This document shows, one piece after another, positions 13,810 through 15,891 of a DNA stretch of 23,062 nt. Where the stretch lies: assembly GCA_011967385.1 (NCBI GenBank), contig GCA_011967385.1_4516.2, one strand, 5' to 3'. The number at the start of each line of letters is the position of its first letter. The stretch's first letter is position 1. The notes beneath the pieces are model-generated. The model was not told the origin of the DNA. It searched no databases and saw only the letters and a list, made by a program, of their open reading frames with translations. Position numbers and translations under genes: made by a program. The stretch is from a phage.

Positions 13810-14025
13810 TTATTGATAAAATGGAGTTAAAGCCCAAGATTCTTTAGATACCATATCGGCGAAATGCCTCATCTCTTCGATTTGGCGACGACGCTGGTCA
13901 GCATAGTCTTCTTCGCCTTCTTCTTTACAATCTTCAAGGTCTTCTTCAAGATACTTTAAGTATTCACTACAAATTTTGTTGACCTTTTCCTGGAAGTCCA
14001 ATAACCCAGTAATAGTAGAAGCCAT
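13810..14025 (-). CDS. Small acidic hypothetical protein, 71 aa (vs.3 position)
   Basis: ATG at 14025 in a TAATG overlap with the upstream stop. Confidence 0.5.
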   Translation of the reverse strand: MASTITGLLDFQEKVNKICSEYLKYLEEDLEDCKEEGEEDYADQRRRQIEEMRHFADMVSKESWALTPFYQ

Positions 14026-14291
14026 TAGTATTTTTCCTCAGGTCGAAATACTGCACGACAGGCCCACATGCTGGCTTCTTTTAGATGTTGTTTAGCATAC
14101 TTAAGAGCCTGTACTGCATCCATATCTTCTTTGGTTTGTTGTTCTGTTTCATTTTCTTTCAAGATATATGCTTCTTCAATCAGAGCATCAAACATCAATC
14201 CAAGACGGACTTCTGCATCTTTAATAGCGTTCACTTTACCGATTTTATCGTCGGTATGCGGCTTGTAGCCTTTGATGTCTTCAATCGACAT
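14025..14291 (-). CDS. Small protein, 88 aa, at the vs.4 position (candidate Acb2-like anti-CBASS sponge; unverified)
   Basis: The track start at 14459 is TTG and would fully overlap the next gene. The ATG at 14291 has SD GAGGA and lies 7 nt after the upstream stop. The Acb2 call is by synteny only (fourth ORF past vs, as in T4). Confidence 0.45.
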   Translation of the reverse strand: MSIEDIKGYKPHTDDKIGKVNAIKDAEVRLGLMFDALIEEAYILKENETEQQTKEDMDAVQALKYAKQHLKEASMWACRAVFRPEEKY

Positions 14292-14505
14292 AAGGAATTT
14301 CCTCATCGGTGGCAAGGTCATATTCGACCAATTGGATAGGCTCATTAATACCATATCCGCGTACAGTGATATCAGTTGTCGGATAGTTTCCAGTAATATC
14401 ACCCATTCTAAATGCTTCAGTGAATGATTGCTCGCCTGAGCAACTAAACCAGGCGGCAAAACATTTTAAAACATCTTCAGACCCTTCTATAATCAATTTA
14501 GCCAT
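14281..14505 (-). CDS. Small acidic hypothetical protein, 74 aa (vs.5 position)
   Basis: ATG at 14505 in a TAATG overlap with the GrcA-like gene stop. Confidence 0.5.
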   Translation of the reverse strand: MAKLIIEGSEDVLKCFAAWFSCSGEQSFTEAFRMGDITGNYPTTDITVRGYGINEPIQLVEYDLATDEEIPYVD

Positions 14506-14867
14506 TATAGACTCTCAGTAAAGGTACGAGCGATAACGTCGCGCTGCTGTTCTGGAGTCAGAGAGTTAAAGCGAACTGCATAACCGGATACACGGATGGT
14601 CAGCTGCGGATATTTTTCCGGATGCTTAACTGCATCTTCCAGAGTTTCACGACGCAGAACGTTAACGTTCAGGTGTTGACCACCTTCAATTTTAACTTTA
14701 GGTTGATGTTCAATTTCAATTTCACGGGCATTCAAACCGTAGAAAATTTCTGGGTCTACAATAGCGTCTTCTTTAAAAGTCTTAGAGACAATAATCCGGG
14801 CTTGAGTACCGTCTTCAAAATAAATAGTGCCTTTATGTGCACCTTCAAGAATTTGATATGCTTTCAT
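14505..14867 (-). CDS. grcA-like: Autonomous glycyl-radical cofactor (GrcA/YfiD-like) spare-part protein
   Basis: The C-terminal ~60 aa ([60 protein letters not shown]) carry the glycyl-radical motif RVSGYAV and look essentially identical to E. coli GrcA as I recall it. The N-terminal half is divergent. This segment is visibly more GC-rich than its neighbours. Confidence 0.85.
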
Positions 14868-14873
14868 ATAACC

Positions 14874-15182
14874 TCAATTAGAAAATAAATTTATCCAAGT
14901 TTTTTCTTTAATCAAAAATGGGTCGGAATTAAACGCCATTAAACTTTGAGTGATTAATCCCTTAAATGGTCCATCAATAAATTCCATTTTGAAATGTGGA
15001 ATACTAGTCATCAGTCGTGCATTAGGAGCAGTACAAAGAACCTGCTGCCCTGCGAACGGACCTTTAGTCAAACGATATCGTTTAGGTTTAAAATGGTAAA
15101 TCTCGTAATTTTCTACAAGGGCCCTTTTATTGCATACTGGGCTGTTATAACAATATTCAAAAACTTCAATAGTGGTCATCAT
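14874..15182 (-). CDS. Hypothetical protein, 102 aa (vs.7 position)
   Basis: ATG at 15182 in an ATGA overlap with the upstream stop. Confidence 0.55.
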   Translation of the reverse strand: MMTTIEVFEYCYNSPVCNKRALVENYEIYHFKPKRYRLTKGPFAGQQVLCTAPNARLMTSIPHFKMEFIDGPFKGLITQSLMAFNSDPFLIKEKTWINLFSN

Positions 15183-15718
15183 TGCATTCCAATCACAAAA
15201 AATTGAGGACGAGCATTACCGCCGATGCAATATTTGCTTTTGCAACAGTGTTGGACTGTTTTAATATGGATGTCGTAAATCTTATCCATATCAGGAGCTT
15301 TAATAGGCTCGTCAATTATATACAGAATACGAGAAAGCGTTAATCCACGGAATTTATGTCCTTCATTGCCAATAAAACTACGGACAGAATCAGTAAATAA
15401 ACGGAATCGAATATCATCGCTAGAATAACGAGAAAATTCTTTTTTAATGTTGCCAACAGAAATTTTAGCATAAGCTGAAGTATTAGAAAGAACAATAACT
15501 GTTCCACCATCATACAGCCAATTAGCAGCAAAGTTAGTCACAGCAATTGATTTACCTGATTGTCGGCCGCCGTCTAAACGAAGTGTGCAGTATTCTTTGA
15601 GCAAGACTTCAAATGGTGGGGTATAACCGTTCTTACAAATTTCTTCTACTCTAGCATCAGAATGGTGTGTAAAAGCATTCATCAGGGATAGATAAGGTCC
15701 AGTTAAAAATGTTCTCAT
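15179..15718 (-). CDS. Small P-loop protein, 179 aa (vs.8 position)
   Basis: Walker-A-like GGRQSGKS and a Walker-B-like hydrophobic stretch ending IIDE. Weak SD. Lies below a GC-rich spacer. Confidence 0.6.
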   Translation of the reverse strand: MRTFLTGPYLSLMNAFTHHSDARVEEICKNGYTPPFEVLLKEYCTLRLDGGRQSGKSIAVTNFAANWLYDGGTVIVLSNTSAYAKISVGNIKKEFSRYSSDDIRFRLFTDSVRSFIGNEGHKFRGLTLSRILYIIDEPIKAPDMDKIYDIHIKTVQHCCKSKYCIGGNARPQFFVIGMQ

Positions 15719-15891
15719 TTAGTTTCTCTTAAGGTTGGGGCCATTCCGTGGCACATGTTAGGTCCTTCGACTCGCTATGTAAACCCATTACCGCGCTTGG
15801 GCTCGACCTTATTACAGGTTGGAAAAGGTACATCACTCAGAGGACTCGACGTTCATGAGGAGAGGTTGCGCTTCCCTTTATTAGGCAAGAA

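Follow-up and report, generated by a model that had tools for sequence, protein, structure and literature searches.

The open reading frame described here is the T-even phage gene vs.6, and its best overall explanation, which we regard as very probable, is that it encodes a 13-kDa GrcA/YfiD-type autonomous glycyl-radical cofactor that serves as a spare part for pyruvate formate-lyase (PFL) and has a mosaic origin. At the sequence level, an old phage-type 5' half is joined to a 3' portion of 180 nt that is nearly pure Escherichia grcA DNA. The simplest reading of the host-like portion is recent host-to-phage homologous recombination (gene conversion). The identity of the gene is already known: the T4 vs.6 product was reported as characterised in 2001, the gene is routinely annotated, and its identification adds nothing. 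The only fresh point is the mosaic itself, an indication that phage and host gene recombined recently. No description of it was found in the literature searched; an earlier mention in key older literature is possible.

The window, by which is meant the whole 23,062-nt stretch of DNA that was analysed, comes from an RB69-like T-even phage. Across the vs.6 region, Escherichia phage RB69 (Mosigvirus, Straboviridae) is 97.5% identical to it. Table 1 presents the features discussed below. The gene lies in a tightly packed leftward operon comprising regB, an RB69 ORF117-like gene, vs.4, vs.5, vs.6, vs.7 and vs.8, and its position between vs.5 and vs.7 is conserved, in synteny with both RB69 and T4. 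At its 3' end, the stop codon of vs.6 overlaps the start of vs.5 within the sequence TAATG (14503-14507). Taken together, the tight packing and this overlap suggest that vs.6 is co-transcribed and translationally coupled with its neighbours. A promoter and terminator scan was uninformative, as the counts of promoter-like sites around vs.6 were at the level of shuffled sequence.

Homologs of vs.6 are found in more than 1,500 phage records, two of which encode an identical protein. RefSeq names the RB69 and T4 orthologs GrcA. The GenBank labels of the gene vary, with entries reading pyruvate formate-lyase, acetyltransferase, hypothetical protein and even ribonucleotide reductase subunit. In PHROGs v4, the full-length Vs.6 family (phrog_1209) is labelled as being of unknown function despite the reported biochemistry of its T4 member.

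Table 1. Coordinates of vs.6, its parts and other elements of the window
Feature	Position	Strand	Description
vs.6 CDS	14505..14867	-	120 aa; ATG at 14867, stop 14505-14507; predicted GrcA/YfiD-type autonomous glycyl-radical cofactor, ortholog of T4 Y06I
Shine-Dalgarno GAGG of vs.6	14872..14875	-	4 nt 5' of the ATG; overlaps the vs.7 stop TGA (14874-14876); read from sequence
Phage-type N-terminal half	14688..14867	-	codons 1-60; homologous to the GrcA N-half, highly diverged
Host-identical tract	14505..14687	-	codons 61-120 plus stop; structured glycyl-radical domain (GrcA 68-127)
RVSGYAV glycyl-radical motif	14574..14594	-	residues 92-98; Gly95 codon 14583-14585; read from sequence
vs.4	14025-14291	-	Pfam PF24729 Acb2/Tad1 hairpin domain; 63.5 bits (cut-off 27), 2e-17
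Element 5' of vs.8	15719-15891	-	core ~15783-15823; candidate structured RNA

An initial annotation, made from the letters of the sequence, had proposed a GrcA-like spare part for a glycyl-radical enzyme that carries the motif RVSGYAV, and profile and structure-linked searches bear this out. The Pfam Gly_radical model matches at 2e-18 (67.3 bits against a cut-off of 22.2) over residues 60-101 and is the sole Pfam domain of what is a small stand-alone protein without a catalytic barrel. Its Gly95 corresponds to G102 of GrcA and G734 of PflB (numbering from PMC12338860, combined with the present alignment). By phmmer, the protein matches the E. coli GrcA structure 6owr at 2e-42, and its T4 ortholog, Y06I, is identical at 112 of 120 residues. 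The full length of Vs.6 is covered by the PHROG 1209 profile (9e-63; residues 1-120 on profile positions 1-121). A further likeness is to the C-terminal domain of PflB (and TdcE): residues 57-120 of Vs.6 align with PflB 696-759 at 3e-26, with approximately 80% identity across the last 60 residues. Unlike PflB, however, Vs.6 contains no part of the catalytic barrel and no Cys418/Cys419 site; it is thus no enzyme but a detachable cofactor domain. A structure predicted from the single Vs.6 sequence was unusable (pLDDT 41, pTM 0.34); the fold is settled by the identity of the protein to solved GrcA and PFL structures.

Membership in the GrcA family proper is a finer question, since Vs.6 scores 159.1 bits against the NCBIfam GrcA equivalog (TIGR04365; E = 5.8e-47, residues 18-120), just below the 170-bit cut-off. 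This narrow miss arises because the N-terminal half has diverged. The initial annotation had called that half divergent, and the alignment agrees: residues 1-60 are collinear with E. coli GrcA and seven residues shorter, with only 16 of 60 identical (27%), whereas the N-halves of bacterial GrcA proteins remain 73-91% identical out to the Pasteurellaceae. The phage-type N-half is common to several genera of Straboviridae, to T5-like Demerecviridae and to a jumbo Erwinia phage, and it defines an old phage-specific lineage. By analogy with its T4 ortholog, from which its biochemical membership is drawn, Vs.6 can be expected to work like GrcA; strictly, it is best assigned to a phage Vs.6/Y06I branch of the GrcA family (InterPro IPR011140).

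The C-terminal half presents the opposite picture. It had been suggested to be nearly identical to E. coli GrcA, and the agreement is complete, since residues 61-120 match residues 68-127 of the K-12 protein at 60 of 60 positions; this is an extended match and not one confined to a short motif. The likeness carries over to the DNA, where the last 180 nt of the coding sequence are identical to K-12 grcA at 175 positions (97.2%) and all five differences are synonymous. The closest E. coli grcA alleles, which occur in many strains, match the 183-nt phage tract at 179 positions, and every one of 5,426 complete E. coli genomes matches it at 95-99%. A match of this kind is far beyond chance. The donor would have been grcA rather than pflB or tdcE, since the DNA identity of tdcE to the tract is only about 76%.

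Composition follows the same division. As had been noted from the sequence, the conserved half is richer in GC, with a value of 0.481 compared to 0.344 for the 5' half and 0.377 for the whole window; in a sliding-window analysis across the 23 kb, 0.18% of 183-nt windows reach 0.481. Codon usage likewise differs between the halves, with a GC3 of 0.40 in the 3' half versus 0.22 in the 5' half, and leucine is encoded by CTG at five of six positions in the 3' half versus six of 64 in the neighbouring genes. The breakpoint is sharp and lies at codon 60/61: the 51 nt of codons 44-60 already contain 23 differences from grcA. Downstream of the vs.6 stop codon, no DNA similarity to grcA was found. The host-like tract coincides with the stretch over which the phage and host genes can be aligned as DNA at all.

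A local jump in GC combined with near-identity to the host has the look of an assembly chimera or of contaminating host DNA. Such an artefact is effectively excluded. The junction is in frame inside a single open reading frame, and the same architecture is present at the same locus in more than 600 independent phage genomes, including T4, T2 and RB69, at 95-99% identity to grcA. Moreover, the stop codon marks the precise limit of the similarity, and changes specific to the phage are present in the final three codons.

These last codons (14505-14513), which read GAG AGT CTA in the phage and GAA AGC CTG in E. coli, account for three of the five positions at which the tract departs from E. coli grcA. 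They lie directly 5' of the overlapping vs.5 start, and T4 and other T-even phages have different combinations of changes there. The changes may have been selected for translation initiation of vs.5; alternatively, a conversion tract may have its 3' boundary here.

To explain the host-like half, the initial annotation had offered either host-derived sequence or strong constraint. The data favour the first of these; constraint by itself does not account for the synonymous sites. In a comparison of grcA from 80 bacterial species, the sequence closest to the E. coli 3' tract is that of another Escherichia (98.3%), followed by the phage (97.2%) and then by Citrobacter amalonaticus (92.2%). The synonymous divergence (dS) from E. 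coli grcA within the tract is 0.12 for the window phage and 0.07 for T4, compared to 0.40 between E. coli and Citrobacter, even though the proteins of those two bacteria are identical at 60 of 60 residues in this domain. Against E. coli, grcA reaches a dS of 1.1 in Salmonella and 0.8-1.1 in Klebsiella, whose domains differ from that of E. coli at two residues. Within vs.6 itself, the residues conserved between phage and E. coli share their codon in 55 of 60 cases in the C-half versus six of 16 in the N-half (Fisher p = 1.6e-5).

Could the 3' half instead be the product of extremely strong purifying selection on a domain acquired long ago, together with codon optimisation and with no recent exchange of host DNA? 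The C-terminal domain is conserved at 48-60 of 60 residues across all of the phages and bacteria, grcA is codon-biased, and the 3' halves of the bacterial genes diverge more slowly than the 5' halves. Synonymous sites, however, are not fixed by protein constraint, as the Escherichia and Citrobacter pair illustrates. Two phage controls lead to the same point. The C-half of Klebsiella phage Matisse is identical to Klebsiella GrcA at all 60 residues, yet only 28 of 60 codons are shared and dS is saturated. Mosigvirus EP32a, in turn, carries 11 synonymous differences in the tract and thereby shows that synonymous drift is tolerated. These controls imply that codon identity does not follow from protein constraint and that phages can accumulate drift at these sites. 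The drop in codon identity across the breakpoint, which is evident even at conserved residues, also runs counter to selection as the sole cause, and an account without recent exchange is unlikely.

The direction of exchange can be read from the bacterial genes and from codon usage. Both halves of grcA diverge normally between E. coli and Citrobacter (92% and 89%), and codon choice in the tract follows E. coli preferences, which the phage does not share; together these observations argue for transfer from host to phage. The history would then begin with an ancient grcA homolog in phages; homologous recombination would recently have replaced its 3' half with Escherichia grcA sequence, as judged from three to five substitutions in 180 nt. 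Part of the similarity could also come from selection on a highly expressed gene to use host-optimal codons.

The exchange appears to have a phage-to-phage side as well. Between the window phage and T4, the two halves of vs.6 have dS values of 0.35 (5') and 0.095 (3'), compared to 0.68-2.3 in the flanking genes. These low values suggest that vs.6 as a whole is also transferred between T-even genera. Further afield, Krischvirus Phi1, which infects E. coli, has only 74% identity to E. coli grcA, and no recent DNA match to host grcA was found for the Klebsiella phages JD18 and Matisse in a comparison with grcA of Raoultella and of Klebsiella species other than K. pneumoniae (3' halves 79-87%, dS from 0.68 to saturated). 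Tracking of the host by conversion is thus not general, and the alignments indicate recent conversion solely for the clade of E. coli T-even phages.

At the protein level, Matisse (L085, 221-583) and JD18 (L084, 221-583) bear the Klebsiella/Salmonella-type signature RRETLLDAVEH, with LDAVE where E. coli has EDAVK. This could represent matching of the protein to the host variant without a recent DNA transfer, or else a retained ancestral state. The pattern is not uniform, since the signature in Pseudotevenvirus phages of Enterobacter and Cronobacter is of the E. coli type.

Within the E. coli T-even clade, a tentative extension, possible but somewhat doubtful, is that vs.6 evolves in concert with its host. 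During infection, fragments of host DNA would repeatedly overwrite the phage copy by way of the 180-bp grcA stretch, which would act as a landing pad and may also let alleles move between co-infecting Tequatrovirus and Mosigvirus phages.

What is known of function comes from the two founding members of the family. According to later accounts (PMC8683613, PMC13450708, PMC12338860), Wagner et al. 2001 (BBRC 285:456) identified E. coli YfiD and T4 Y06I as autonomous glycyl-radical cofactors; both are described as being activated by PFL-activating enzyme and as restoring PFL that has been cleaved by O2. As of 2021, these two proteins alone were validated spare parts (PMC8683613, PMC13450708, PMC12338860). 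YfiD consists of a disordered stretch (residues 1-60) and a structured domain (residues 61-127) that substitutes for the piece PFL has lost. Its N-half favours association with cleaved PFL and makes radical installation efficient, but catalysis does not require it (PMC8683613).

By analogy, the function of Vs.6 would follow from its 93% identity to T4 Y06I. The two genes occupy the same vs.5-vs.6-vs.7 locus, and their products are both 120 amino acids in length and combine a phage-type N-half with a host-identical C-half. Seven of the eight substitutions between them fall in the N-half. At position 73, the window phage has Arg, as does E. coli GrcA, and T4 has His. Nothing in this comparison points to a different function for the window protein. 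With E. coli GrcA, Vs.6 shares the same glycine-radical loop, and the activase (PflA) and client (O2-cleaved PflB) are presumed to be the same. Apart from its diverged N-half, Vs.6 differs in being expressed from a phage operon and not from the host grcA promoter. That promoter is FNR-regulated.

In the proposed mechanism, the host activase PflA, a radical-SAM enzyme, would install the radical at Gly95, within the RVSGYAV loop. The C-terminal structured domain would then dock into PflB that has been cut by oxygen at G734, taking the place of the lost glycyl-radical domain, and the conversion of pyruvate to acetyl-CoA and formate would resume. The N-half probably aids binding to damaged PFL and also activation, as in YfiD. 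For the phage, the benefit may be continued fermentative carbon and energy flow in an infected cell that has lost the ability to express grcA, at times when oxygen reaches an anaerobic host. In the literature searched, no infection phenotype for vs.6 was found.

In YfiD, the N-half is important for both binding and activation. With its diverged N-half, Vs.6 could thus differ from YfiD in kinetics or even in its client. In a stronger form of this idea, the N-half retargets the host-identical radical domain so that Vs.6 is a decoy or modulator, either sequestering PflA or altering PFL flux instead of restoring it. The low identity to GrcA of precisely the half that governs binding to cleaved PFL and efficient activation in YfiD would fit such a role, as would the score below the equivalog cut-off. 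Nevertheless, T4 Y06I has the same phage-type N-half (53 of 60 residues) and is reported, in the summaries given by PMC8683613 and PMC13450708, to reconstitute cleaved PFL in vitro. The perfect conservation of the PFL-docking domain also argues for productive docking, which leaves a decoy role very unlikely.

A second alternative concerns the client. The initial annotation had linked the protein to the anaerobic ribonucleotide reductase of the phage, so that Vs.6 might be a spare part for, or a protector of, phage NrdD instead of host PFL. T4-family phages encode NrdD together with NrdG, and NrdD is also cleaved by O2 at its glycyl radical. Reviews call spare parts for other glycyl-radical enzymes conceivable (PMC8683613, PMC13450708). 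The domain, however, is of the PFL type: it matches host GrcA completely and shares about 80% of its residues with PflB 700-759. A BLASTP comparison with the last 199 amino acids of T4 NrdD gave E = 3.1 and left the glycine loop unaligned; the NrdD motif is RTCGYLG, in another context. Not one NrdD chain was present among 33 PDB hits. The gene nrdD is absent from the window, whose largest ORF is 331 aa, and is therefore unlinked to vs.6 there. In addition, the account in PMC8683613 has T4 Y06I working with PFL-activating enzyme and cleaved PFL. The proposed link to the reductase is thus scarcely plausible, and the likely client of Vs.6 is host PflB and possibly also TdcE.

Two further elements of the window deserve mention. 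The product of vs.4 matches PF24729, a family of anti-CBASS cyclic-nucleotide sponges, and PHROGs lists the matching vs.4 family as being of unknown function. The other element lies 5' of vs.8 and includes the GC-richest stretch of the window (0.49; ~15735-15880). It is conserved and non-coding, and is organised around a 41-nt near-invariant core, GCCAACCTGTAATAAGGTCGAGCCnAAGyGCGGTAATGGG. Copies are found in more than 1,000 records of T4-like phages and in unrelated rV5-like phages of the Vequintavirus genus (T4, L003, 5785-5960; the rV5-like phages L096, 1440-1640, and L108; and L104-L107). In the Vequintavirus genomes, the element occupies an unannotated gap approximately 430 nt upstream of a tRNA cluster.

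Several identities were considered for this element and set aside. A host origin found no match in E. coli genomes, no tRNA was found in it, and a supposed resemblance to twister ribozymes was rejected, as no Rfam family matched even at E <= 10. Compensatory changes are present in the helix that closes the core, where CC..GG is replaced by GG..CC and a third pair appears as UA, GU, AU or GC, and in a small hairpin where A-U is replaced by G-C. The flanking hairpins keep their positions and differ in sequence. Fold support is weak, with a single-sequence z-score of +2.0 and an RNAalifold consensus of -12 kcal/mol for the nine sequences compared. The element suggests itself as a candidate for an unclassified structured RNA.

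The same stretch bears on the start of vs.8, which is annotated in T4 as a gene of 219 aa. Its first 42 codons (L003, 5785-5913) match window positions 15719-15840. In the window phage, this stretch has frame-shifting indels and stops in all three frames, with blocks of 39 nt and 20 nt that are identical to T4. Given such frame-breaking indels in RB69-like phages, the N-terminal extension annotated in T4 is probably not coding. The conserved start of vs.8 is the methionine of MRTFLTGPY (window position 15718).

For annotation, the unknown-function label of the Vs.6 family in PHROGs is easily corrected. For the biochemistry of glycyl-radical repair, the N-half of Vs.6, diverged but conserved among phages, is a natural variant of the region thought to mediate activation and the recognition of damaged PFL, and would be a useful probe of mechanism. 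For the evolution of T-even phages, the sharp mosaic offers unusually clean evidence that a virulent phage recently recombined with the host chromosome inside a functional gene. If vs.6 does evolve in concert with its host, the process would hold the phage spare part in exact agreement with the current host's PFL system, and it would document that gene conversion from host to phage continues in a strictly lytic phage, one that degrades the DNA of its host.
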